From the NCBI RefSeq assembly GCF_000026545.1, contig NC_011601.1: a DNA stretch of 64,000 nucleotides. One strand, given 5' to 3'. Below the pieces are notes generated by a model that made no database searches, was not told where the DNA came from, and was given only the letters and a program-made list of their open reading frames with translations. A program made the position numbers and the translations under genes. This document shows positions 1 through 24,877 of the stretch, in pieces (positions within the stretch are counted from its first letter, which is position 1; every line of letters starts with the position of its first letter). The stretch comes from Escherichia coli O127:H6 str. E2348/69. GTDB taxonomy: Bacteria; Pseudomonadota; Gammaproteobacteria; Enterobacterales; Enterobacteriaceae.

Positions 1-60
1 TTAAGCGAAGTCATCCACGAAGCAGCAATGGCCTTGAATAATAAAGCATTACACGGATAA
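1..60 (+). CDS. Possible 3' end of an upstream gene truncated by the window edge (frame 1 ends ...LSEVIHEAAMALNNKALHG, stop at 58-60)
   Basis: Open frame from position 1 to TAA at 58-60, 21 nt before the RBS/ATG of the next gene; too short to identify; a different frame also ends at 39-41. Confidence 0.25.
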   Translation, partial: LSEVIHEAAMALNNKALHG

Positions 61-81
61 CACATACCACTGAGGGAATAT

Positions 82-1251
82 ATGAATTTACATGAGTATC
101 AGGCCAAATCGTTACTGGCTGGCATGGGGATGCCGTGTCCAAAAGAGATAGCCATCCAACAGATTTCGCAACTGGCAGATGCCTGGCAACATATTGCTTG
201 CCCGAGTAAAGGCGCGGTACTTAAAGCGCAGGTACATGCTGGTGGGCGCGGTAAAGCTGGCGGCGTAAAAGTGCTTAAGCAGCTGCCGGAAGCACAGGCT
301 TTTGTACAGCAAATGTTGGGATCGCAACTGGTGACTTATCAGACCGGGCCAGAAGGACAGTATGTCAGCAGTATTTTACTGTGCGAAAACATTTATCCGG
401 TACGCCAGGAACTCTATTTTGGCATGGTGGTGGATCGTGAAAGCCAGCGGGTCACGTTTATTGTCAGCCCGGAAGGTGGTGTGGAAATTGAAAAAGTCGC
501 CCATGAGACACCGGAGAAAATCAGCAGTGTCAGCATTGATCCACTGACAGGCGTGCAGCCTTGCCATATCCGAGAAATGTTTGCTGTTCTGCAACTGGAA
601 CACGGACTATTTGCTGCCTTTAGTCGCCTGGTTAATCAGGCGTGGAAAGCCTTTAACGAACTGGATTTTGCCCTGCTGGAAATTAACCCTCTGGTGTTGC
701 GGGAAACGGGCGAATTTATGTGTGCAGACGCGAAAGTATCGCTGGATGATAACGCGCTGTATCGTCACCCGGAACTCCAGGTGCTACGTGATGAAACCCA
801 GGAAGATCCACGCGAAAGCCAGGCAGCGAAGCTTGATCTTAATTATGTCTCGCTGGACGGAAATATCGGCTGCATGGTCAATGGTGCAGGGCTGGCTATG
901 GCAACCATGGACATCATCAAGCTATACGGTGAACAACCCGCAAACTTCCTGGATGTTGGCGGTGGCGCAACCCAGGAGCGCGTCAGTGAAGCCTTTCGGC
1001 TGATTGTTTCCGACGGCAAAGTGAAAGCCATTCTGGTTAATATTTTTGGTGGGATTGTCCGTTGCGACATGATCGCCAGAGCCATTATTCATGCTCTGAA
1101 TGAGGCCCGTATCACCCTGCCTGTCGTGGTGCGTCTCTCCGGTAATAACGCTGCCGAAGGGCAGCGGTTACTGGCAGAAAGTGGCCTGACGGTGGAAGCC
1201 GTCAATTCTCTGGATGATGCCGCTAAACGCATCATTGCGTTACTGAATTAA
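82..1251 (+). CDS. Succinyl-CoA synthetase beta subunit paralogue (ADP-forming, SucC-like), accessory island
   Basis: 389 aa; N-terminus MNLHEYQAKSLLAGMGMP is the classic SucC start; ATP-grasp-like sequence throughout; GAGGGAA RBS upstream; immediately followed by a SucD-like gene. Confidence 0.9.
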   Translation: MNLHEYQAKSLLAGMGMPCPKEIAIQQISQLADAWQHIACPSKGAVLKAQVHAGGRGKAGGVKVLKQLPEAQAFVQQMLGSQLVTYQTGPEGQYVSSILLCENIYPVRQELYFGMVVDRESQRVTFIVSPEGGVEIEKVAHETPEKISSVSIDPLTGVQPCHIREMFAVLQLEHGLFAAFSRLVNQAWKAFNELDFALLEINPLVLRETGEFMCADAKVSLDDNALYRHPELQVLRDETQEDPRESQAAKLDLNYVSLDGNIGCMVNGAGLAMATMDIIKLYGEQPANFLDVGGGATQERVSEAFRLIVSDGKVKAILVNIFGGIVRCDMIARAIIHALNEARITLPVVVRLSGNNAAEGQRLLAESGLTVEAVNSLDDAAKRIIALLN

Positions 1252-1263
1252 CAGGAGGTTAAG

Positions 1264-2136
1264 ATGAGCGTTTTGATCAACAAACACACGCGGGTACTGG
1301 TGCAGGGCATTACCGGCAAAAACGGCACATTTCATACAGAGCAGGCTATTGCGTATGGCACGCAGATTGTGGGTGGAGTGACGCCAGGTAAGGGCGGGCA
1401 ACGGCATCTGGATCGCCCGGTTTTTGATTCAATGAAAGAAGCGATGCGACAAACTGAGGCTGATGCCAGCGTGATTTATGTGCCTGCACCGTTTGTGCTG
1501 GATTCTGTTGTTGAGGCTATTGAAGCTGGCGTCAAATTGGTTGTGGTGATCACTGAAGGTGTACCGACACTGGATATGGTGAAAGTTCGTCGGCTGCTTG
1601 ACTGCCACCCGGATGTGCGGCTGATTGGGCCAAACTGCCCAGGAGTTATCACGCCGGGTGAGTGCAAAATCGGGATTATGCCTGGTGAAATCCACCGCCC
1701 AGGGCGTATTGGGATTGTTTCCCGCTCCGGTACATTAACCTACGAAGCTGTAGCGCAAACCACGGCGCTGGGACTTGGGCAATCCACCTGTATTGGTATT
1801 GGCGGCGATCCGGTTCCGGGGACTAACTTTATTGATGCGCTGCGTTTATTCGAAAATGATCCGCAAACAGACGCGGTAATTATGATCGGTGAAATTGGTG
1901 GTAATGCGGAAGAACGGGCCGCGGAATTTATTCGTCATGAAATGAATAAACCGGTCGTAGGTTATATTGCCGGTGTTACTGCACCAAAAGGAAAACGCAT
2001 GGGACACGCCGGAGCCATTATTTCTGGCGGTAGCGGCAGTGCGGAGGATAAATTCCGGGCGTTCGATAAAGCAGGCATGGCATGGACACGAAATCCAGCA
2101 TTACTTGGCGAAACGTTATGGAATGTTATTAAGTAA
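1264..2136 (+). CDS. Succinyl-CoA synthetase alpha subunit paralogue (SucD-like)
   Basis: 290 aa; CoA-binding N-terminus ([15 protein letters not shown]) and phospho-histidine loop GHAGAII; AGGAGG RBS at 1254-1259; 12 nt after the beta subunit stop. Confidence 0.9.
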
Positions 2137-2153
2137 TCCATAAATGAATATCA

Positions 2154-2179
2154 AGGGAGCATATCGCTCCCTTTTTTTA
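2154..2179 (+). terminator. Rho-independent terminator after the sucCD-like pair
   Basis: GC hairpin (GGGAGC...GCTCCC) followed by a run of seven T. Confidence 0.55.
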
Positions 2180-2212
2180 TCTGTGTGGTAAGGGAATCAT
2201 CTTTTAATAACT

Positions 2213-2230
2213 GTGCGGAAAACCGCGCAT
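2213..2230. promoter_or_regulatory. Palindrome TGTGCGGAAAACCGCGCA, candidate enhancer (UAS) for a sigma-54 activator
   Basis: Near-perfect inverted repeat about 65 bp upstream of the sigma-54 -24 element at 2292; sigma-54 activator sites are typically palindromic and upstream. Confidence 0.3.
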
Positions 2231-2291
2231 AAAATAAAAAGGATAAATAGCTAACTCATTAAATAACAAAGCGTTATTAAAAAATTAAAGA

Positions 2292-2307
2292 TGGCATAGC
2301 TCCTGCA
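2292..2307 (+). promoter_or_regulatory. Sigma-54 (RpoN) -24/-12 promoter, TGGCAT-N5-CTGCA, for the transporter/dehydrogenase genes
   Basis: GG at 2293-2294 and GC at 2305-2306 with exact 10-nt spacing; about 40 bp upstream of the transporter start; a sigma-54 activator is encoded nearby (4921-6279). Confidence 0.55.
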
Positions 2308-2347
2308 ATAGCCAGGCAGGTTTTTTATTTTTCACAATGAGGTGAAT

Positions 2348-3847
2348 ATGTCATCAATATCCCATGGCGCACCACAAAAGCGTCGAATTATCCCTAATCC
2401 CGGCCTGTGGTTGGCGATCATTGCCGGAATTATTATTACCCTTCTGCCACTGGGCGATACCTTGCCCGTCGCCGGACAAAATATGATCGCCATTCTGGTG
2501 TTTGCCATTATTGTCTGGATCAGCGAAGCGATGGATTACACCGCCAGTGCAATTGTTATTTCCGCACTGATTATCTTTATGGTTGGTTTTGCCCCGGATA
2601 TGAATCACCCGGACACGATCCTTGGCACCGCGAAAGCGCTGAAAATGACTCTGTCGGGTTTTTCTAATTCTGCTCTGGCGCTGGTGGCAGCAGCAATGTT
2701 TATCGCGGCGGCAATGACCATTACCGGGCTGGATAAACGCATTGCGCTGTTTACTATGTCGAAAATAGGTGCCAGCAGCCGCAGCATTATTATCGGTGCC
2801 ATTGTGGTGACCATCGTCCTGAGCCTGGTCGTACCCAGTGCCACTGCCCGTACGGCTTGCGTGGTGCCGATTATGATGGGGGTCATTGCGGCATTTAAGG
2901 TGGATAAACATTCACGTTTAGCGGCGTCAATGATGATTGTTATCGCCCAGGCGACCAGTATCTGGAAAGTTGGTATTCAAACTTCGGCGGCGCAAAACCT
3001 GCTTTCTATCGGTTTTATCAATAAAACTTTCGGCGCCGGGCATTCTGTCAGCTGGCTTGACTGGCTGTTAGCGGGCGCGCCCTGGAGCCTCACCATGTCG
3101 GTGATCCTCTATTTCCTCGCACGTAAATTGTTGCCGCCAGAAACGGAAGCTGTTGAAGGGGGGAGCGAGGCCATTAAAAAAGCACTCGCAGAGTTAGGGC
3201 CAACCACCGGTAAAGAAAAACGCTTGATCGGTATTTCGCTGTTGTTACTGCTCTTTTGGTCTACTGGCGGAAAATTGCACAGTATTGATACCACCTCTGT
3301 CACCCTTGCCGGACTGGCGATTATGTTGCTGCCAGGCATCGGTGTAATGAGCTGGAAAGAGGTCGAAAAACGTGTGCAGTGGGGCACGTTGCTTATGTTT
3401 GGTATTGGTATCAGCCTGGGGTCCACGTTGCTTGATACACAGGCAGCTTCATGGATGGCGAACTATGTGGTGAAAGGTTTTGGTCTCGATGGCTTGCCAT
3501 CATTAGCCATCTTCGCGATTCTCGCCGCTTTCTTGATAATCATTCACCTGGGGTTTGCCAGTGCCACTGCGCTAACTGCCGCATTGCTGCCCATCCTGAT
3601 TAGCCTGTTAAGCAGTCTGCCGCCAGAACTCGGCGTTAACCCGGTCGGCATGACCATTCTGCTCGCCTTCAGTGTCAGTTTTGGCTTCATCCTGCCGATT
3701 AACGCGCCACAAAATATGGTGTGTATGGGTACGGATACCTTCACGCCACGCCAGTTTACCCGTGTGGGACTGTACCTGACGGTGATCGGCTACCTGTTGT
3801 TGCTACTGTTTGCCGCCACCTGGTGGAAAATTTTAGGTCTAATGTGA
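2348..3847 (+). CDS. Anion transporter, probably divalent anion:Na+ symporter (DASS/CitT-like) family; candidate alpha-ketoglutarate/dicarboxylate importer
   Basis: About 499 aa, highly hydrophobic with many predicted TM helices; ATG at 2348 preferred over in-frame GTG at 2342 (AGG RBS at 2340-2342); family assignment from overall resemblance, not a search. Confidence 0.75.
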   Translation: MSSISHGAPQKRRIIPNPGLWLAIIAGIIITLLPLGDTLPVAGQNMIAILVFAIIVWISEAMDYTASAIVISALIIFMVGFAPDMNHPDTILGTAKALKMTLSGFSNSALALVAAAMFIAAAMTITGLDKRIALFTMSKIGASSRSIIIGAIVVTIVLSLVVPSATARTACVVPIMMGVIAAFKVDKHSRLAASMMIVIAQATSIWKVGIQTSAAQNLLSIGFINKTFGAGHSVSWLDWLLAGAPWSLTMSVILYFLARKLLPPETEAVEGGSEAIKKALAELGPTTGKEKRLIGISLLLLLFWSTGGKLHSIDTTSVTLAGLAIMLLPGIGVMSWKEVEKRVQWGTLLMFGIGISLGSTLLDTQAASWMANYVVKGFGLDGLPSLAIFAILAAFLIIIHLGFASATALTAALLPILISLLSSLPPELGVNPVGMTILLAFSVSFGFILPINAPQNMVCMGTDTFTPRQFTRVGLYLTVIGYLLLLLFAATWWKILGLM

Positions 3848-3858
3848 GGAAACCAACG

Positions 3859-4932
3859 ATGTCATTACAAATTGCTGTTGAAAAAGTGCGTTGGTTAGCT
3901 GCCGGGCTGCTGGAACTTAATGGCTGTGATGCCGATATCGCTCAGGATGTGGCGGAACATATGATTGAAGCGGAACGTTATGGTTTTGCCAGCCACGGCG
4001 TCACGCTGCTACCGAAATATCTGGAAAATATCGCTCGTGGCGATGTAACCGCGAATGCCCGCCCGGAATGCTTAACAAGTGAAGGTAATTTACAACGTTT
4101 TCATGCCCACAATGGCTTTGGTCAACACGCCGGAAAAGTGGCGGTAAATGCTGCCATCGAACAAACAAAACACCGCGGTTTTTGCCTGTTAACGTTGTGC
4201 CATGCGCATCATTTAGGGCGTATGGGGCATTACGGGCAAATGGTTGCTGATCAAGGCCTGGCGATGCTGGCCATGAGTAACGTCACCGGGCGTCCGGCAC
4301 TGGTCGCCCCGTGGGGCGGTGCGGAACCGCGTATGACCACTAACCCTTTCTGCTTTGCCTGGCCGTTCAGTGATGGGCGTCCGCCGATTCTGGTTGATTT
4401 TGCCACCAGTAGCATGGCGCTAAATAAAGCACGGGTAATGTCGTCCACCGGGAAGCAGGCCGCGCCGGGACAATTGATCGATGCACAGGGGAATCCAAGC
4501 AATGATCCTGGGGTGTTATTCAGCAATCCTCCAGGGGCGTTACTGCCATTTGGTGAGCATAAAGGATTTGGCCTGGCACTGATGATTGAAATGATGGCGG
4601 GGATCTTATCTGGTGGTGACACGATCGCCGAAGATCATCAGACGGATGGATCTGCGCATAATCATCTTTTTGCGTTGATTATCGATCCTGATCAATTCAC
4701 CGATCTGGCAGGGGAGAAAGGGCAGTTCTTTGCGGATTATCTGTTAGCTACGCAGCCTCAACCTGGCGGCAATCCGGTGATTTACCCCGGTATGCCAGAA
4801 GCTGCCAACCGGGAACGCAATGCGAAGATGATTACGATCCCGGTATCATTCTGGTCCTGGGTAGTTGAACATTACGCCCGCAAAGGTATCGATTTGGGGT
4901 TACATCCTCAGGAATCAGCATTAGCTGGATGA
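3859..4932 (+). CDS. Ldh2-family (malate/L-lactate/ureidoglycolate dehydrogenase-like) NAD(P)-dependent oxidoreductase
   Basis: 357 aa from ATG 3859, with GAGGAA RBS 9 nt upstream and 11 nt after the transporter stop; the track ORF 3721-4932 has an N-terminal extension overlapping the transporter and is rejected; conserved HGxxxxPKY-type region (FASHGVTLLPKY). Confidence 0.75.
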   Translation: MSLQIAVEKVRWLAAGLLELNGCDADIAQDVAEHMIEAERYGFASHGVTLLPKYLENIARGDVTANARPECLTSEGNLQRFHAHNGFGQHAGKVAVNAAIEQTKHRGFCLLTLCHAHHLGRMGHYGQMVADQGLAMLAMSNVTGRPALVAPWGGAEPRMTTNPFCFAWPFSDGRPPILVDFATSSMALNKARVMSSTGKQAAPGQLIDAQGNPSNDPGVLFSNPPGALLPFGEHKGFGLALMIEMMAGILSGGDTIAEDHQTDGSAHNHLFALIIDPDQFTDLAGEKGQFFADYLLATQPQPGGNPVIYPGMPEAANRERNAKMITIPVSFWSWVVEHYARKGIDLGLHPQESALAG

Positions 4933-6279
4933 TTCTGGTCGATAAACTTGCGGTTGAATCTGATGTTTGTTGAGTTTGTCATATAAAGTCTTGCGCGGCA
5001 GCTGTAATAGCCGCGCTGTCAAACTGACCTGGCCTTCCGTTTGTCGCAGCATATCTTCGATTAACTTTTTCTCGAAAGCATCAATGCAGGCGGTAAGGCC
5101 ACTCTCTTCTTGCTGAGTCATTGGTACTGGCTGGTGGTGGGTCAGTAAACCGAGAACAAAACGCTCTGCATTGTGTTTAAGTTCACGTACATTGCCAGGC
5201 CAACTTTGTGACTGCAACCAGGCCAGTAACATGGGAGAAATATCAGGCAGAGGACGATTATATTTTTGTGCCGCCTGACTGGCGAACCAGTAAAACAGTT
5301 CAGGGATATCTTCTCGTCGTTGGCGTAGAGGTGGAATATTCAGGCTAACCACATTCAGACGATAATAGAGATCGAGACGAAACAGATGTTCTTCGCTGCG
5401 ACGCAGTAAATCTTCCTTGGTCGCTGCAATAACACGGCAATTCACCGGAATTAATTGATTGGCACCTAATCGTTCAATGGTTCTTTCCTGCAATACACGT
5501 AGCAGTTTTACCTGCATTCCTGATGGCATTCCCTCTATTTCATCGAGAAATAACGTACCACCATTTGCATGTTCAATTTTTCCAATACGCTTTTTAACCG
5601 CACCGGTAAATGCGCCCGCCTCATGACCAAATATTTCGCTTTCAAACAACGTTTCTGGTAAGCCTGCACAGTTTAAGGCAACAAACTGCCCCTGACGGCG
5701 GGTACTCCAGTGATGCAGCATTCTGGCGACGACTTCTTTACCACAACCTGTTTCACCATAAATAAGGACATCGGCACCGGTATCTGCGACATTAAGGATC
5801 ATTTTACGCAGTTGTTGCATCTGCGGACTACGACCAATCAGCACCGGGCCATTTTCCTGTTGCAGATTCGCCAGTAATTGCTGATTTTCTAAAACCAATC
5901 GCCGTTTTTCTACCGCTCTGGCAATAATACTCAATAATTTATCTGAGCTACTTGGTTTCTCAATGAAATCGAATGCACCATTACGCATGGCATCCACCGC
6001 CATTTCCACGTCACCGTGTCCGGTAATTAAAATAACCGGAATTTTGCTATCCATTTCGTTGATGTAACTGAGGAGCTCTAGTCCTGATATTCCAGGTAAC
6101 CTGACATCGGTCAGTATAATAATGTTGGCCTGACTTTGAATAAGGGGAATACTGTGTTCTGCATCGCAACAGGAAATAACACGATAACCAGCCAGCGTGA
6201 GCGTTTGTTCACAGGCAAAACGTACATCGTCACTATCCTCAATATAAACTATAGTAATTTCACTGGATTTATTATTCAT
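4921..6279 (-). CDS. kguR: Sigma-54-dependent response regulator (NtrC family: receiver + AAA+ sigma-54 activator + HTH); consistent with KguR
   Basis: 452 aa; receiver domain with conserved D (IIILTDVRLPG); Walker A GETGCGKE; GAFTGA sigma-54 contact motif; C-terminal HTH; stop overlaps the 3' end of the convergent dehydrogenase gene. Confidence 0.8.
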   Translation of the reverse strand: MNNKSSEITIVYIEDSDDVRFACEQTLTLAGYRVISCCDAEHSIPLIQSQANIIILTDVRLPGISGLELLSYINEMDSKIPVILITGHGDVEMAVDAMRNGAFDFIEKPSSSDKLLSIIARAVEKRRLVLENQQLLANLQQENGPVLIGRSPQMQQLRKMILNVADTGADVLIYGETGCGKEVVARMLHHWSTRRQGQFVALNCAGLPETLFESEIFGHEAGAFTGAVKKRIGKIEHANGGTLFLDEIEGMPSGMQVKLLRVLQERTIERLGANQLIPVNCRVIAATKEDLLRRSEEHLFRLDLYYRLNVVSLNIPPLRQRREDIPELFYWFASQAAQKYNRPLPDISPMLLAWLQSQSWPGNVRELKHNAERFVLGLLTHHQPVPMTQQEESGLTACIDAFEKKLIEDMLRQTEGQVSLTARLLQLPRKTLYDKLNKHQIQPQVYRPESSS

Positions 6280-8092
6280 GTTCTTCTCCCCATTCAGGCC
6301 AGGTTAATGTCATTACTGCGCCGCCTTCAGGATGATTACTGGCGTGGAGTGCGCCGTTCGAATTTCGGACAATTTCGCTGACTATTGCCAGTCCCAACCC
6401 CATTCCTCTACGTTTAGTGGTAAAAAATGGTTCAAATATGCGATCGACAACTTCAGGTGCAAAACCGCCACCGCTGTCTTTAATGGTAATAATAACTTTG
6501 TTATTTGCCTGGCGAATGGCGATATCCAGTCGTTTGTAAGAGCTACCTTCCATAGAATCTAAGGCGTTGCTAATTAAATTACTGAATATCTGTTCAAGAC
6601 CGAGCTCATCGCAATTGACAAATAACGGCATGGATGGGGCTTTTATTCGTCGCTCAATATTATTTTTCTCCATGCTGTGATTAAGTAACGCCACGGCGCT
6701 ATACATCACTTTGATGACATCGGCAGAACCTTTAGGTACGCGATGGCGCGAGGCAAATGCTTTAAGTTCGGAAATGAGCTGCGTCATCCGCTCAATCACT
6801 GAAATAATGTGTTTCAGATTCTGTTCAACCTGCGGATACATCTCTTTTTTTAGCATAGTACGCGCGTTATCAGTAAGTGCGTGAATGGCGGCTAACGGTT
6901 GATTTTGTTCATGGGCAATTTCGGTTGCCATCTGTCCAAGCGCCGCCAGTTTGCTGGACTCTGCCAGTTCACTACGCGTAATTTGTAATACTTGTTCAGC
7001 CTGACTGCGCTCTTTTATCTCCTGTATTAATTTTTGATTGATCAATTCCAGGGCAGATGTACGCTCTTTAACCTGTTTCTCTAATGTTTCATTCGCCAGT
7101 GTTAATAATTGTTGTGCATGAGATCGCATTCTCCAGTATTTAATAAATAACAAAAACAGCAGGTAAATAATTAGCGTAATGACTAACGAAATAGCCCATG
7201 ACCAGTACAGGTTATCTAAGGGGACCATAATTGTCATTTTCCAGTTAAATTCTGGAATGGCTATTTGTTGCGTATAATATTGCGGGAATAAACAGAGTTG
7301 TTCTTTTTTATCTTTCAGGAAAGTAAAATTGCTCACGGTATAACAGGGATAATAATCCGCCGGTAAAAGATTGTCGAGACTATATTGGCGGGTAGATTGT
7401 AGTTTTTGTTTTGCCTGAACAGGTAACGGTTGCAGTGTTCGCATTCGCCATGGCGATTTTGAACTTAAAAATATAATCCCATGTTCATCATTCACGATAA
7501 TATTTTCAGGACCTTCGGCCCATGCTTTTTCAATTTCATTAAGACTTATTTTTACTACTACAACACCGACAATTTTTCCTTTATCTTTTATACTTGTAGA
7601 GAGGAAGAATCCCGGTGTATTCGTAGTGCTACCAATACCGTAAAAGCGTCCATTTAAGCCAGACATGGCGTGTTTATAATAGGGGCGATAGCTATAATTT
7701 TGCCCTACATAGCTGCCGGGGTCCTGCCAGTTGCTAGAAGCGATGGCCTTACCTTGGGTATCCAGAATAAATATTGCTGCGGTTTTGAGTTGAGTATTGA
7801 AATGTGCAATTCGTTGATTGAGTTCGCTGGACATCATATCGTCAGGCGTAATTACCGCCTGACGGATGATATGGTCTGTTGAGAGCATATAGGGTAAAAC
7901 ATAAAATTGCTCGATGGTGGAATATAATGTGGACTTATACATTTCAAGCCGCATTTTATCGGTACCGGACAAGGTATTAAAACGCAAGTGCAAAAAAGCG
8001 ATTGAAACCGCGAGCATGATAAGAAAAAGTGAAATGCTTGTAATGTGAAATCGCCATTTGTTCTTAAATATATAATTCCACGATATTTTCAT
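6272..8092 (-). CDS. kguS: Membrane sensor histidine kinase with periplasmic sensing domain; consistent with KguS
   Basis: 606 aa; two TM segments flanking a roughly 260-aa periplasmic region; H-box (ATEIAHEQNQPL) and HATPase_c motifs; 8-nt overlap with the downstream regulator gene. Confidence 0.8.
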   Translation of the reverse strand: MKISWNYIFKNKWRFHITSISLFLIMLAVSIAFLHLRFNTLSGTDKMRLEMYKSTLYSTIEQFYVLPYMLSTDHIIRQAVITPDDMMSSELNQRIAHFNTQLKTAAIFILDTQGKAIASSNWQDPGSYVGQNYSYRPYYKHAMSGLNGRFYGIGSTTNTPGFFLSTSIKDKGKIVGVVVVKISLNEIEKAWAEGPENIIVNDEHGIIFLSSKSPWRMRTLQPLPVQAKQKLQSTRQYSLDNLLPADYYPCYTVSNFTFLKDKKEQLCLFPQYYTQQIAIPEFNWKMTIMVPLDNLYWSWAISLVITLIIYLLFLLFIKYWRMRSHAQQLLTLANETLEKQVKERTSALELINQKLIQEIKERSQAEQVLQITRSELAESSKLAALGQMATEIAHEQNQPLAAIHALTDNARTMLKKEMYPQVEQNLKHIISVIERMTQLISELKAFASRHRVPKGSADVIKVMYSAVALLNHSMEKNNIERRIKAPSMPLFVNCDELGLEQIFSNLISNALDSMEGSSYKRLDIAIRQANNKVIITIKDSGGGFAPEVVDRIFEPFFTTKRRGMGLGLAIVSEIVRNSNGALHASNHPEGGAVMTLTWPEWGEEHE

Positions 8093-8272
8093 TCATCATC
8101 CATTGAATGCATTTATATTTATCATCAGTATATTCCCTGAACAATGTTTGCGAGAACCAAAAGAGTGCCATTGTGTGAATGTGTAAGCAGAATAACCGTG
8201 GCAATGTGTGGTTTATCGCACAGGTATTCCAAATGTGATCATGCTCTTTTTATGTGACAAATCCGCAGATAA

Positions 8273-14425: not shown

Positions 14426-15979
14426 ATGAGTCATCGTGCACGACACCAATTACTGGCGTTTCCGGGCATTATCTTTTTAGTTCTCTTTCCCATCATTCTG
14501 TCGCTATGGATTGCCTTCTTTTGGGCAAAATCAGAAGTGAATAATCAGCTCCGAATCTTTGCTCAGCTGGCGTTGGATAAATCTGAGCTGGTCATTCGTC
14601 AGGCAGATTTAGTGAGCGATGCAGCTGAACGCTATCAGGGGCAAGTTTGCACTCCAGCCCATCAAAAGCGAATGTTGAATATTATTCGTGGCTATCTTTA
14701 TATTAATGAATTGATTTATGCTCGTGATAACCATTTTTTATGCTCATCGCTGATAGCGTCTGTAAATGGCTATACGATTGCACCGGCCGATTATAAGCGC
14801 GAACCTAACGTTTCTATCTATTATTACCGTGATACGCCTTTTTTCTCTGGCTATAAAATGACCTACATGCAGCGGGGAAATTATGTGGCGGTTATCAACC
14901 CTCTCTTCTGGAGTGAAGTGATGTCTGATGATCCGACATTGCAATGGGGTGTGTATGATACGGTGACGAAAACCTTTTTCTCGTTAAGCAACGAGGCCTC
15001 GGCAGCAACGTTTTCTCCGCTGATTCATTTGAATGATTTAACCGTACAACGAAATGGCTATTTATATGCGACAGTTTATTCGACAAAACGCCCAATTGCA
15101 GCCATTGTTGCGACTTCATATCAACGTCTTATAACTCATTTTTATAATCATCTTATTTTTGCGTTGCCCGCCGGTATTTTGGGGAGTCTTGTTCTGCTAT
15201 TACTCTGGCTACGTATTCGACAAAACTATTTGTCTCCCAAACGCAAATTGCAACGCGCCCTCGAAAAACATCAACTTTGCCTTTATTACCAGCCAATAAT
15301 CGATATCAAAACAGAAAAATGTATCGGCGCTGAAGCGTTGTTACGTTGGCCTGGTGAGCAGGGGCAAGTAATGAATCCGGCAGAGTTTATTCCGCTGGCA
15401 GAAAAGGAGGGGATGATCGAACAGGTAACTGATTATGTTATTGATAATGTCTTCCGTGATTTGGGCGCGTATCTGGCAACACATACCGATCGCTATGTTT
15501 CTATTAACCTGTCAGCCTCCGATTTTCATACCTCACGGTTGATAGCGCGAACCAATCAGAAAACAGAGCAACATGCGGTGCGCCCGCAGCAAATTAAATT
15601 TGAAGTGACTGAACATGCATTTCTTGATGTCGACAAAATGACGCCGATTATTCTGGCTTTCCGCAAGGCCGGTTACGAAGTGGCAATTGATGATTTTGGT
15701 ATTGGCTACTCTAACTTGCATAACCTTAAATCATTGAATGTCGATATTTTGAAAATCGATAAATCGTTTGTTGAGACGCTGACCACCCACAAAACCAGTC
15801 ATTTGATTGCGGAACACATCATCGAGCTGGCGCACAGCCTGGGATTAAAAACGATCGCTGAAGGTGTCGAAACTGAGGCGCAGGTTAACTGGCTGCGCAA
15901 ACACGGCGTGCGCTATTGCCAGGGATGGTTTTTTGCGAAGGCGATGCCGCCGCAGGTGTTTATGCAATGGATGGGGTAA
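14426..15979 (+). CDS. pdeC: Cyclic-di-GMP phosphodiesterase PdeC (CSS sensory domain + EAL)
   Basis: About 517 aa from ATG 14426 (track start 14417 is a TTG); N-terminal TM, periplasmic CSS region, second TM, C-terminal EAL domain; exact C-terminus not verified against K-12. Confidence 0.85.
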
Positions 15980-16423: not shown

Positions 16424-16888
16424 ATGGAAAAGAAATTACCCCGCATTAAAGCGCTGCTAACCCCCGGCGAAGTGGCGAAACGCAGCGGTGTGGCGGTATC
16501 GGCGCTGCATTTCTATGAAAGCAAAGGGTTGATTACCAGTATCCGTAATAGCGGCAATCAGCGGCGATATAAACGTGATGTGTTGCGATATGTCGCAATT
16601 ATCAAAATTGCTCAGCGTATTGGCATTCCGCTCGCAACCATTCGTGAAGCGTTTGGCGTGTTGCCAGAAGGGCATACGTTAAGTGCGAAAGAGTGGAAAC
16701 AGCTTTCGTCCCAATGGCGAGAAGAGTTGGATCGGCGCATTCATACCTTAGTGGCGCTGCGTGACGAACTGGATGGATGTATTGGTTGTGGCTGCCTTTC
16801 GCGCAGTGATTGCCCGTTGCGTAACCCGGGCGACCGATTAGGAGAAGAAGGTACCGGCGCACGCTTACTGGAAGATGAACAAAACTAA
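16424..16888 (+). CDS. soxR: Redox-sensing [2Fe-2S] MerR-family regulator SoxR
   Basis: 154 aa; MerR HTH N-terminus and C-terminal [12 protein letters not shown] cluster-binding motif. Confidence 0.97.
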
Positions 16889-17021
16889 AGCGCCACAAGG
16901 GCGCTTTAGTTTGTTTTCCGGTCTTTGTCTTTCTCTCTATCCCGCTGGTACACAGGAGGGTTTCCCCCGACGTCAACACACCTCATTCGAGCACGTGGTG
17001 GAGGTTCCGGTTGGTGTTGAT
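16882..17021 (-). ncRNA. ryjA: Candidate small RNA RyjA/SraL, antisense to and overlapping the soxR 3' end
   Basis: K-12 has an sRNA of about 140 nt here from memory; a TACAAT -10-like hexamer on the minus strand at 17033-17028; hairpin + T-run at 16887-16917 serves as a shared terminator; boundaries approximate. Confidence 0.4.
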
Positions 17022-18934: not shown

Positions 18935-20584
18935 ATGGAAATCTTCTTCACCATACTGATAATGACCCTCGTGGTCTCGCTGTCCGGGGTGGTCACTCGT
19001 GTCATGCCCTTTCAGATCCCGCTTCCGCTTATGCAAATCGCCATCGGTGCGCTACTGGCGTGGCCGACGTTTGGTTTGCATGTGGAGTTTGATCCTGAAC
19101 TCTTTTTAGTCTTGTTTATCCCGCCGTTGCTGTTCGCTGATGGCTGGAAAACGCCGACCCGTGAATTTCTCGAACATGGGCGAGAGATTTTCGGCCTCGC
19201 GCTGGCGCTGGTGGTGGTCACCGTGGTCGGCATTGGCTTCCTTATTTACTGGGTGGTGCCGGGCATTCCGCTGATCCCCGCCTTTGCGCTGGCTGCGGTG
19301 CTTTCTCCGACCGATGCTGTAGCGCTCTCCGGGATTGTTGGCGAGGGGCGCATCCCGAAAAAAATCATGGGCATTTTGCAGGGCGAAGCGTTGATGAATG
19401 ACGCCTCCGGCCTGGTGTCGTTGAAGTTTGCCGTGGCAGTGGCGATGGGGACAATGATCTTCACCGTCGGCGGTGCGACGGTCGAATTTATGAAAGTGGC
19501 AATAGGCGGTATTCTCGCCGGTTTTGTGGTGAGCTGGCTGTATGGTCGCTCGCTGCGATTCCTCAGCCGCTGGGGCGGTGATGAACCCGCGACGCAGATC
19601 GTTCTGCTGTTCTTGCTGCCATTCGCTTCTTATCTGATTGCGGAACATATTGGCGTTTCCGGCATCCTCGCTGCGGTTGCCGCCGGGATGACCATCACCC
19701 GCTCCGGTGTGATGCGCCGTGCGCCGCTGGCAATGCGCCTGCGCGCAAACAGCACCTGGGCGATGCTGGAATTTGTCTTTAACGGCATGGTGTTCCTGCT
19801 GTTAGGTCTGCAGTTGCCGGGGATTCTGGAGACGTCGCTGATGGCGGCAGAAATCGACCCTAACGTCGAAATCTGGATGCTGTTTACCGATATTATTCTG
19901 ATATATGCGGCGCTGATGCTGGTCCGTTTCGGCTGGCTGTGGACGATGAAAAAGTTCAGCAACCGCTTCCTGAAGAAGAAGCCGATGGAGTTTGGTTCGT
20001 GGACTACACGAGAAATCCTGATCGCGTCTTTCGCCGGGGTGCGTGGGGCGATCACTCTGGCCGGTGTGCTCTCTATCCCGCTTCTCTTGCCGGATGGTAA
20101 CGTCTTCCCTGCGCGCTATGAGTTGGTGTTCCTGGCGGCTGGCGTCATTCTCTTCTCGTTGTTTGTCGGCGTGGTGATGTTGCCTATTCTGCTACAACAC
20201 ATAGAAGTCGCGGACCATTCGCAACAATTGAAAGAGGAACGTATTGCACGAGCGGCAACGGCAGAAGTGGCAATTGTGGCGATCCAGAAAATGGAGGAGC
20301 GTTTGGCGGCGGATACCGAAGAGAATATCGATAACCAGCTGCTCACAGAGGTTAGTTCTCGCGTCATTGGTAACCTGCGTCGTCGCGCCGATGGACGTAA
20401 TGATGTAGAAAGTTCAATCCTGGAAGAGAACCTGGAGCGTCGCTTCCGTCTGGCGGCATTGCGTTCTGAACGTGCTGAACTGTACCATCTGCGCGCCACG
20501 CGGGAGATCAGTAACGAAACGCTGCAAAAATTACTGCACGATCTCGATTTGCTTGAAGCGTTGCTGATTGAAGAGAACCAATAA
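18935..20584 (+). CDS. yjcE: Na+/H+ exchanger family protein YjcE (CPA1)
   Basis: 549 aa; polytopic membrane N-terminal domain and soluble C-terminal domain; K-12 position. Confidence 0.9.
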   Translation: MEIFFTILIMTLVVSLSGVVTRVMPFQIPLPLMQIAIGALLAWPTFGLHVEFDPELFLVLFIPPLLFADGWKTPTREFLEHGREIFGLALALVVVTVVGIGFLIYWVVPGIPLIPAFALAAVLSPTDAVALSGIVGEGRIPKKIMGILQGEALMNDASGLVSLKFAVAVAMGTMIFTVGGATVEFMKVAIGGILAGFVVSWLYGRSLRFLSRWGGDEPATQIVLLFLLPFASYLIAEHIGVSGILAAVAAGMTITRSGVMRRAPLAMRLRANSTWAMLEFVFNGMVFLLLGLQLPGILETSLMAAEIDPNVEIWMLFTDIILIYAALMLVRFGWLWTMKKFSNRFLKKKPMEFGSWTTREILIASFAGVRGAITLAGVLSIPLLLPDGNVFPARYELVFLAAGVILFSLFVGVVMLPILLQHIEVADHSQQLKEERIARAATAEVAIVAIQKMEERLAADTEENIDNQLLTEVSSRVIGNLRRRADGRNDVESSILEENLERRFRLAALRSERAELYHLRATREISNETLQKLLHDLDLLEALLIEENQ

Positions 20585-20602
20585 CGCTTTGGCGGTGTAA
20601 TC

Positions 20603-20636
20603 GGTAAAAAGGTGCAGTACATCGCACCTTTTTACC
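20603..20636. terminator. Bidirectional terminator between convergent yjcE and actP
   Basis: 13-bp stem GGTAAAAAGGTGC...GCACCTTTTTACC. Confidence 0.6.
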
Positions 20637-20666
20637 GTTGGTCAGGTGAGCAGAGGCTAGCGGAGA

Positions 20667-22630
<1,964 letters not shown>

Positions 22631-22708
22631 AGATTCTCCAGAGGTAATGTAGGGATTGTTTTAATTCCCGCTCCCTTATGGGAGAAGGTTAACGCTTGGG
22701 TAACCCTT

Positions 22709-22918
22709 GCCGAATGTAGGCCGGATAAGGCGTTATACGCCGCATCCGGCAATCAATGCCGGATGCGACGCTGTCGCGTCTTATCAGGCCTACAGCCGTT
22801 GCCGAATGTAGGCCGGATAAGGCGTTCACGCCGCATCCGGCAACCAGCGCCTGATGCGCCGCTGTCGCGTCTTATCAGGCCTACAAACCGTTACCGACTC
22901 GCATCCGGCAATTGTGGG
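22709..22918. repeat. REP/BIME cluster: two tandem units of about 92 bp plus a partial third
   Basis: Repeated GCCGAATGTAGGCCGGATAAGGCGTT...CGCATCCGGCAA...CTTATCAGGCCTAC palindromic units between yjcH and acs. Confidence 0.9.
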
Positions 22919-24877
22919 TTACGATGGCATCGCGATGGCCTGCTTCTCTTCAAGCAGCTTCTCGACTACGCCAGGATCGGCAAGCGTCGAGGTATCGCCC
23001 AGGTTGCTGGTATCGCCCGCCGCAATTTTGCGCAGAATACGGCGCATAATTTTGCCGGAGCGGGTTTTAGGCAGGGAGTCGGTCCAGTGCAGCACGTCTG
23101 GCGTCGCCAGCGGGCCAATCTCTTTACGCACCCAGTTGCGGACTTCTGCGTACAGTTCTGGTGACGGTTCCTCCCCGTGATTAAGCGTGACGTAGGCGTA
23201 GATCGCCTGACCTTTAATATTGTGCGGAATACCGACCACAGCGGCTTCGGCAATTTTCGGATGCGCCACCAGCGCCGACTCAATCTCTGCCGTCCCCAGG
23301 CGGTGACCGGAGACGTTCAGCACGTCGTCAACGCGCCCGGTGATCCAGTAATAGCCATCTTCATCGCGACGCGCGCCGTCGCCGCTGAAATACATATTTT
23401 TGAAGGTGGAGAAGTAGGTCTGCTCAAAACGTTCGTGATCGCCAAACAGCGTACGCGCCTGACCCGGCCAGGAGTCGGTGATCACCAGACTGCCTTCGGT
23501 GGCCCCCTCCAGCGGGTTACCTTCGTTATCGACCAGCGCTGGTTGCACGCCGAAGAACGGACGTGTTGCCGAACCGGCTTTCAGCTCGGTAGCGCCAGGC
23601 AGTGGCGTGATCATGAAACCGCCAGTTTCGGTCTGCCACCAGGTGTCGACCACCGGGCATTTCTCGTTGCCGATCTTCTTCCAGTACCACTCCCACGCTT
23701 CCGGGTTAATTGGCTCGCCCACGGAACCGAGAATGCGCAGCGACGAACGGTCGGTGCCTTCGATCGCTTTATCGCCTTCCGCCATCAGCGCGCGAATCGC
23801 CGTGGGCGCGGTATAGAGAATATTGACCTGATGCTTGTCCACCACTTGCGCCATACGGGCAGGCGTCGGCCAGTTCGGTACGCCTTCAAACATCAGCGTG
23901 GTCGCGCCGCAGGCCAGCGGGCCATACAGCAAATAACTGTGTCCGGTAACCCAGCCCACATCGGCGGTGCACCAGTAGATGTCGCCCGGATGATAATCAA
24001 AGACATATTTAAAGGTCAGCGCCGCGTACACCAGATAACCGCCGGTAGTGTGCAGCACGCCTTTTGGCTTACCGGTAGAACCGGAGGTATAGAGAATAAA
24101 CAGCGGGTCTTCGGCGTTCATCTCTTCCGCCTGGTGCTGATCGCTCGCTTGCTCAACCAGGTCGTGCCACCACAGGTCGCGCCCTTCCTGCCAGTCAATT
24201 TTCCCGCCAGTACGCTTCAGTACCACCACATGCTCTACGCTGGTGACGTTCGGGTTTTTTAGTGCGTCATCGACGTTTTTCTTCAGTGGAATGCTGCGCC
24301 CGGCACGCACACCTTCGTCGGAAGTGATCACCAACCGTGAGTTGGAATCGATAATGCGTCCGGCAACGGCTTCCGGCGAGAAGCCGCCGAAAATTACCGA
24401 ATGCACCGCGCCAATGCGGGCGCAGGCCAGCATCGCGACCGCGGCTTCCGGCACCATCGGCATATAAATCGCCACCACATCACCTTTTTTAATGCCCAGC
24501 TCGAGCAGGGTATTGGCGAAGCGGCAGACGTCGCGGTGCAGCTCTTTATAGCTGATATGTTTGCTCTGGCTGGCGTCGTCGCCTTCCCAGATGATGGCGG
24601 TACGATCGCCGTTTTCTTGCAGATGGCGGTCAAGGCAGTTTGCCGCCAGATTCAGCGTGCCGTCCTCGTACCATTTAATGGACACATTACCGGGGGCAAA
24701 GGAGGTGTTTTTCACCTTCTGGTACGGTGTGATCCAGTCGAGAATTTTTCCCTGTTCGCCCCAGAAGGTATCTGGTGCGTTAATAGATTGTTGATACATC
24801 GCCTCGTACTGCTGAGGGTTTATCAGGCAACGGTCTGCGATGTTGGCAGGAATGGTGTGTTTGTGAATTTGACTCAT
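22919..24877 (-). CDS. acs: Acetyl-CoA synthetase Acs
   Basis: 652 aa; [31 protein letters not shown]...; AMP-binding motifs. Confidence 0.97.

Follow-up and report, generated by a model that had tools for sequence, protein, structure and literature searches.

In Escherichia coli K-12 and O157:H7, the convergent genes yjcE and actP are separated by yjcF, now annotated in RefSeq as espX5, a "T3SS effector pentapeptide repeat protein" (b4066). The K-12 version is a 1293-bp CDS lying on the minus strand within a 1623-bp spacer; its 430-aa product matches the Pfam pentapeptide-repeat models PF13599 and PF00805, and its GC content is 33%, against 56% in the flanks. Relatives of EspX5 are limited to E. 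coli-labelled proteins of at least 87% identity, below which identity drops to about 25%. Divergent variants of the gene (90% and 87% amino acid identity) occupy the same site with the same flanks, which indicates that it has long been evolving in place. One study counts the yjcF/actP region of K-12 among the "promoter islands" bound by H-NS (PMC3661553), which is to be expected of AT-rich DNA of foreign origin. VFDB-based surveys list espX5 for many E. coli genomes; espX1, espX4, espX5 and related genes were found in other lineages but not in B2 sequence types ST131, ST12, ST73, ST127 and ST95 (PMC8844930). That phylogroup B2 lineages lack espX5 has, hence, already been published, and it is an ordinary strain-to-strain difference.

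A second arrangement, yjcE-LysR-lrgA-lrgB-actP, is seen in B2-type strains such as DSM 30083 (ATCC 11775) and 2022H047, where a 2154-bp spacer holds three genes. A further point of comparison is offered by the known bidirectional intrinsic terminators between convergent genes, whose stem-loop stands between an A-tract and a T-tract. Here we describe the corresponding site in a 64,000-nucleotide stretch of the chromosome of E. coli O127:H6 strain E2348/69 (below, the window). Like the K-12 and O157:H7 allele, it has the same flanking genes in convergent orientation, a palindromic putative terminator just past yjcE and homologous actP-proximal sequence, but K-12 has about 1.53 kb of extra DNA comprising espX5, its AT-rich promoter region and an intact actP terminator hairpin, CCCCGGTC..GACCGGGG. 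The B2-type allele has yjcE and actP genes 99.5% identical to those of the window, and thus represents its genetic background, but differs in its three-gene spacer, in having another yjcE-proximal hairpin and in its intact actP terminator.

The yjcE-actP junction of E2348/69

The features of the junction are as follows (positions are those of the window).

18935-20584, plus strand: yjcE, Na+/H+ antiporter, intact at 549 aa (ORF list; TIGR00831, 847 bits, above cutoff; annotated as yjcE in E2348/69).
20570-20581, plus strand: final four sense codons of yjcE, GAA GAG AAC CAA, the left edge of an allele-specific haplotype (SNP table).
20585-20666, no strand: 82-bp spacer, the "empty" allele of the yjcE-actP site (contiguous in 263 to 265 genomes; spacer alignments).
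20602-20637, no strand: palindrome CGGTAAAAAGGTGC-AGTACATC-GCACCTTTTTACCG, a putative bidirectional intrinsic terminator for yjcE (plus strand) and acs-yjcH-actP (minus strand) (folding; conservation).
20640-20666, no strand: probable remainder of the ancestral actP-proximal terminator region, GGTCAGGTGAGC...GGAGA (alignments; outgroup lrgB-actP spacers).
20667-22316, minus strand: actP, cation/acetate symporter, intact at 549 aa, final gene of acs-yjcH-actP (ORF list; TIGR02711, 1143.8 bits, above cutoff; annotation).
22313-24877, minus strand: yjcH (22313-22630) and acs (22919-24877), the upstream context of actP.

The stop codon of yjcE ends at 20584 and that of actP (TTA on the plus strand) begins at 20667, as both the sequence and the ORF list confirm, leaving 82 bp between two genes that converge on the spacer; the annotated order in E2348/69 is ghxP-yjcE-actP-yjcH-acs. 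An 882-bp query spanning the junction matched enteropathogenic E. coli (EPEC) E2348/69 at 100% identity. An earlier note on this DNA, made from the letters alone, had given the K-12 order as yjcE-yjcF-actP and proposed that yjcF was missing here as a clean presence/absence difference rather than through decay in place. That order proves correct, and the gap contains neither an ORF nor a coding remnant: a tblastn search of the whole 64-kb window with K-12 EspX5 gave nothing below E = 3, and a blastn search of the same window with the 1623-bp K-12 spacer gave no match. The note had named a copy of yjcF elsewhere in the genome as what would overturn its proposal. For this, a chimeric query, consisting of the E2348/69 yjcE-actP locus and K-12 espX5 in opposite orientation, was compared by megablast (sensitive to DNA identities of at least about 85%) with all complete E. 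coli genomes. It matched a single place per record in three O127:H6/E2348/69 assemblies, with no copy of espX5, and likewise one place only in the best 60 empty-site genomes. The LysR-lrgA-lrgB cassette was also sought, and was found neither in the window by tblastn nor elsewhere in the genome at the megablast level. Within that sensitivity, E2348/69 carries neither espX5 nor LysR-lrgAB.

A palindrome between convergent genes

The arms of the palindrome (20602-20615 and 20624-20637; CGGTAAAAAGGTGC and GCACCTTTTTACCG) form 14 perfect pairs, with a GGTGC/GCACC core lying between A5 and T5, so that either strand reads as a hairpin followed by a U-run. Folding gave z-scores of -3.15 on the plus strand and -5.21 on the minus strand, with centroid energies of -22.6 and -20.4 kcal/mol, respectively. 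This is a stable stem-loop with an A-run 5' and a T-run 3', the layout looked for in such terminators, and most likely terminates transcription from both sides, i.e., from yjcE and from acs-yjcH-actP. The earlier note's "strong bidirectional terminator" is thus borne out as a structure by the pairing and the fold scores, its activity being a prediction from sequence. Unlike known bidirectional intrinsic terminators, the hairpin was missed by rule-based scanning: a consensus promoter and terminator scan of 20400-20850 returned 0 sites. In our reading, the T-run itself pairs with the A-run in the maximal stem, so that a rule demanding a T-run after the stem fails.

No Rfam family matched within the 82-bp spacer, and a mobile-element scar (IS, MITE or REP) is not supported there, the element being found at one place per genome. 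A search for paralogous copies of the palindrome or of the K-12 left flank of espX5, made to see if it moves with espX genes, likewise found that sequence to be single-copy and only in genomes with espX5. Empty alleles elsewhere in Escherichia retain the palindrome, as does the left flank of K-12 and O157 espX5. Since it corresponds to the element just downstream of espX5 in K-12, a noncoding relic of an espX5-type allele is arguably visible in the spacer; the note's statement that no gene remnant is present accordingly holds for coding sequence and is open to dispute for the palindrome.

Three alleles across E. coli

Among 5,426 complete E. coli genomes, 5421 match the flanks, and three alleles together account for 5417 of these (4114 + 1038 + 265):

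espX5 allele: 4,114 genomes.
Cassette of 2,154 bp with a LysR regulator (PF03466/PF00126), a CidA/LrgA-family gene (PF03788) and an LrgB-family gene (PF04172): 1,038 genomes.
Empty allele, contiguous junction of 81 to 82 bp: 263 to 265 genomes.

Every statement of the earlier comparison with K-12 stands, but its two-state framing was incomplete for a site with three alleles. The window conforms to the empty type: its yjcE and actP stop codons, 82 bp apart, are within the 81 to 97 bp of that type, and its AAAAAGGTGC...GCACCTTTT palindrome precedes GGTCAGG..GGAGA. The strains with flanks nearly identical to those of the window are LysR-lrgAB strains, which we take to be phylogroup B2, and not yjcF carriers. 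In DSM 30083, each of the two genes has a long SNP-free stretch relative to the window, whereas yjcE and actP of K-12 are 97.0% and 95.9% identical, respectively. The combination of an empty site with flanks at least 99.1% identical to the window is found in only 10 genomes; the remaining 255 or so empty-site genomes have flanks of 97.6 to 98.1% identity and include IAI39, CE10, an ST648 strain and APEC O78:H4, presumably of phylogroups F and G.

The empty alleles of these strains, of E. albertii NBRC 107761 and of two further loci in our set, L008 (another Escherichia species) and L009, share with the window the palindrome and the right part of the spacer, and their spacers span 81 to 97 bp. 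An empty allele with this palindrome thus occurs in E. albertii and in two other Escherichia lineages as well as in some 265 of the complete genomes of E. coli. Relative to the other empty alleles, the window has two private substitutions, at 20650 and 20661, of which the C-to-G change at 20650 disrupts a small second hairpin of its relatives, GGTCA-GG-TGACC; the L009 spacer retains a 15-nt segment missing in the window, and that of E. albertii is without 14 nt of the right part. Over the full spacer, identity to the window falls from 80/82 in 2009C-3133 and 79/82 in IAI39 to 74/82 in L008, 72/97 in L009 and 55/82 in E. albertii. The L008 spacer has diverged about as much as its flanking genes and that of E. 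albertii far more than its flanks, both of which suggest that the empty allele is old.

Outgroups and the ancestral state

A YjcE scan of the Enterobacterales, with one genome per species, yielded 80 outgroup loci. After yjcE, the complete LysR-lrgA-lrgB set is present at 59 of the 80, from Citrobacter to Erwinia and Mixta and including E. whittamii; 11 have LysR only, 3 have other inserts, 3 are uninformative and 4 are empty. The cassettes of B2 E. coli and E. whittamii are 93.6% identical, and their flanks 91.1% and 94.5% identical; this likeness indicates vertical inheritance, and LysR-lrgAB is the ancestral state of the site in Enterobacterales. espX5 was found at none of the 80 loci, nor in any representative of non-coli Escherichia. 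The empty loci are those of E. albertii NBRC 107761, "E. coli SCPM-O-B-8794" (the yjcE of which is just 92% identical to that of the window), Escherichia sp. MOD1-EC7003 and Klebsiella indica. The window palindrome is present in the three Escherichia spacers; the K. indica spacer is unrelated to them, has its own hairpin and represents an independent empty site. Across Enterobacterales (loci L010 to L085), the yjcE-actP interval is indel-prone: many species have 0.5 to 5 kb of extra DNA, located either from yjcE to LysR or from lrgB to actP, and the 11 LysR-only species have lost lrgAB but kept LysR.

Relationships among the junctions

The alleles were compared by anchored multiple alignments and by an explicit test of a modeled deletion product against shuffled sequences. 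On the left, the flank of espX5 in K-12 and O157 contains a palindrome with 27-nt arms and a AAAAAGGTGC core, and this flank aligns to the empty allele of E. albertii at 53/60 and 55/69 positions; the left flank of the LysR allele is unrelated to those of the espX5 and empty types. The long palindrome of the espX5 allele (K-12, L001 2402-2459; L090) has perfect arms in L090, and between espX5 alleles and L009 the outer arms read CCCGAG/CTCGGG and CCTGAC/GTCAGG, changes that preserve the complementarity of the arms. On the right, GAAGA.ATTCCCC and, after it, the actP terminator hairpin are common to espX5 and LysR alleles (31/37), and the hairpin is conserved as CCCCGG..CCGGGG in all outgroup lrgB-actP spacers. 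In empty alleles there is no ATTCCCC block, and the match to K-12 begins at GGTCAG, with 21 to 24 of 37 positions identical, or 25/33 for L009. The presence of GAAGA.ATTCCCC, 5' of GRTCAG, in both the espX5 and LysR alleles and its absence from the empty ones point to the empty alleles as the derived state.

Joining ...CAGGTT to GGTCAG... in K-12 removes 1527 bp and leaves a 96-nt product. This is collinear with the 97-nt L009 spacer at 66 to 67 matches (shuffles: mean, 55; maximum, 63) and with the E. albertii spacer at 67 matches (shuffles: mean, 50.6; maximum, 59). The empty spacer is therefore collinear with both flanks of K-12 espX5. Two other junction signatures were considered and set aside. 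The CCCGACTTA of the E. albertii and L009 spacers, regarded as a relic of the LysR stop codon left by a deletion at TCTG microhomology, is actually the left arm of the long palindrome; and a 7-nt GGTCAGG direct repeat or target duplication around espX5 is contradicted by the espX5 alleles, which have AGCTCGGGC or ACCTCGGGC there.

Origin of the empty allele

Together, these findings identify the 82 bp as the empty state of a site with three alleles, and we consider it probable that this allele descended from an espX5-type allele by a clean deletion and later entered this lineage by recombination. The most economical history starts from the ancestral LysR-lrgAB, proceeds through its replacement by an espX5 unit and ends with a clean deletion that gave the empty allele. 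In this scheme, LysR-lrgAB would have given way, in an Escherichia ancestor, to an espX5 unit with its downstream palindromic terminator. The loss of about 1.5 kb in one clean deletion would then have removed espX5 together with its promoter region, as well as the left stem of the actP terminator, leaving the palindrome and the 3' part of the actP terminator region, with the junction at 20639|20640. Finally, homologous recombination would have brought the old empty allele into the B2 lineage from which E2348/69 descends, displacing LysR-lrgAB.

The order from espX5 to empty rests on noncoding flanks of 80 to 100 nt and one common block of 12 to 14 nt, and the same picture could result if the right flank underwent gene conversion afterwards. 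With no espX5 seen in the non-coli Escherichia representatives, it would also require either an espX5 allele that dates back to those lineages or a transfer of empty alleles between species, and the right flank of the empty alleles, at just 21 to 24 of 37 positions identical to K-12, is a point against it. We give some weight, although less, to the converse order, in which the empty allele arose directly from LysR-lrgAB and espX5 was inserted later, in the ancestor of other phylogroups, so that the E2348/69 lineage never had yjcF. Such an insertion accords with the AT-richness of espX5 (33% GC) and its restriction to E. coli-labelled sequences, with the empty alleles of E. albertii and two other Escherichia lineages alongside 0/80 outgroup loci with espX5, and with the placing of the insert, which lies precisely where the two halves of the empty allele meet. 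It fares worse with the GAAGA.ATTCCCC block, which espX5 alleles keep by the actP hairpin just as LysR alleles do and which empty ones are without, so that the insertion must have brought the block along or been followed by an extra conversion step; moreover, the K-12 insert has neither terminal repeats nor a target duplication around it.

Events confined to the E2348/69 lineage are far less probable. The loss of the LysR-lrgAB cassette de novo, suggested by the fact that the closest flanks are those of LysR-type B2 strains, is highly improbable and contradicted by the junction: it would join the GC hairpin GGTTGGCGGGCGAGCCCGCCAACC on the left to ATTCCCCGATCAAGCGACCGGGG on the right, whereas the spacer has the AAAAAGGTGC palindrome, absent from LysR alleles, its right part has diverged, and four codons of yjcE are changed. 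A recent deletion of yjcF from a K-12-like allele is what a simple comparison with K-12 would suggest, and it is contradicted on several counts that make it more improbable still. The flanks are of the B2 type (99.5% identical to DSM 30083 versus 97.0% and 95.9% to K-12), the B2-type relatives have LysR-lrgAB and not espX5, and the spacer is strongly different from the K-12 flanks, its near-identical counterparts being empty alleles in strains unrelated to this one, with the L008 spacer at about 90% identity. As for an assembly or collapse artefact in the source genome, three independent O127:H6/E2348/69 assemblies are 100% identical across 3.4 kb of the junction and about 260 other genomes have the same arrangement, leaving it next to no probability.

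The entry of the empty allele by recombination is in keeping with the mosaic SNP pattern at this locus. The last four sense codons of yjcE show four consecutive synonymous third-position differences from the GAG GAA AAT CAG of B2 LysR-type strains and K-12; against B2 LysR-type strains, the rest of the last 330 bp of yjcE has two or three scattered single-site differences, and the first 330 bp of actP only two or three. Hence, the flanks are nearly identical to those of B2 LysR-type strains up to the last 13 bp or so of yjcE, and the spacer is of the IAI39/2009C-3133 type, a junction that a de novo deletion of LysR-lrgAB cannot make. Homologous recombination is, on these differences, the likeliest route by which the empty allele reached E2348/69.

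Implications for the locus

We found no paper describing the three-allele structure in the literature searched, and the structure can be read from public annotation. It makes K-12 the wrong reference for the B2 strain E2348/69. It also recasts espX5, a "virulence factor" that VFDB screens report for most E. coli, as a chromosomal accessory gene representing one state of a three-state site, which is missing in the prototype T3SS-positive EPEC strain and present in T3SS-negative K-12. The locus is a compact case of what is probably cassette replacement, clean deletion and allele exchange, useful as a marker if unsurprising to the specialist. A broader and rather doubtful possibility is that the site is a long-lived trans-species polymorphism of three alleles, namely, a LysR-lrgAB cassette resembling carboxylate transporters, an effector-like espX5 and a deletion derivative. 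All the alleles would then predate the diversification of E. coli, recombination over very short tracts would have reassorted them between phylogroups and between species, and they might be kept by selection on the neighbor of an acetate-uptake operon.

Other features of the window

Upstream of actP, the spacer between yjcH and acs is 288 bp long (K-12, 199 bp; SCU-115, 212 bp) and contains two tandem matches to Rfam naRNA4 (REP-type elements) at 22719-22881 on the plus strand; in IAI39, the same spacer holds IS1397 of the IS3 family. The Hfq-binding small RNA sraL (RyjA) lies between soxR and ghxP at 16881-17021 on the minus strand (Rfam, 153 bits). The pdeC gene (14426-15979, plus strand) is 11 codons short, encoding 517 rather than 528 aa, and ends in ...QWMG* (GGG TAA) here, compared with ...QWMEQLPARELTRGQ* (GAG CAA...) in IAI39 and DSM 30083. 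Finally, a gene block beside aphA (approximately 1-8100 of the window; 4512172-4521622 of the E2348/69 record) codes for a sensor kinase-like ATP-binding protein, a sigma-54-dependent regulator, an Ldh-family oxidoreductase and a DASS symporter, along with additional copies of sucD, sucC and lpdA; it appears to resemble the alpha-ketoglutarate utilization island of B2 uropathogenic strains.
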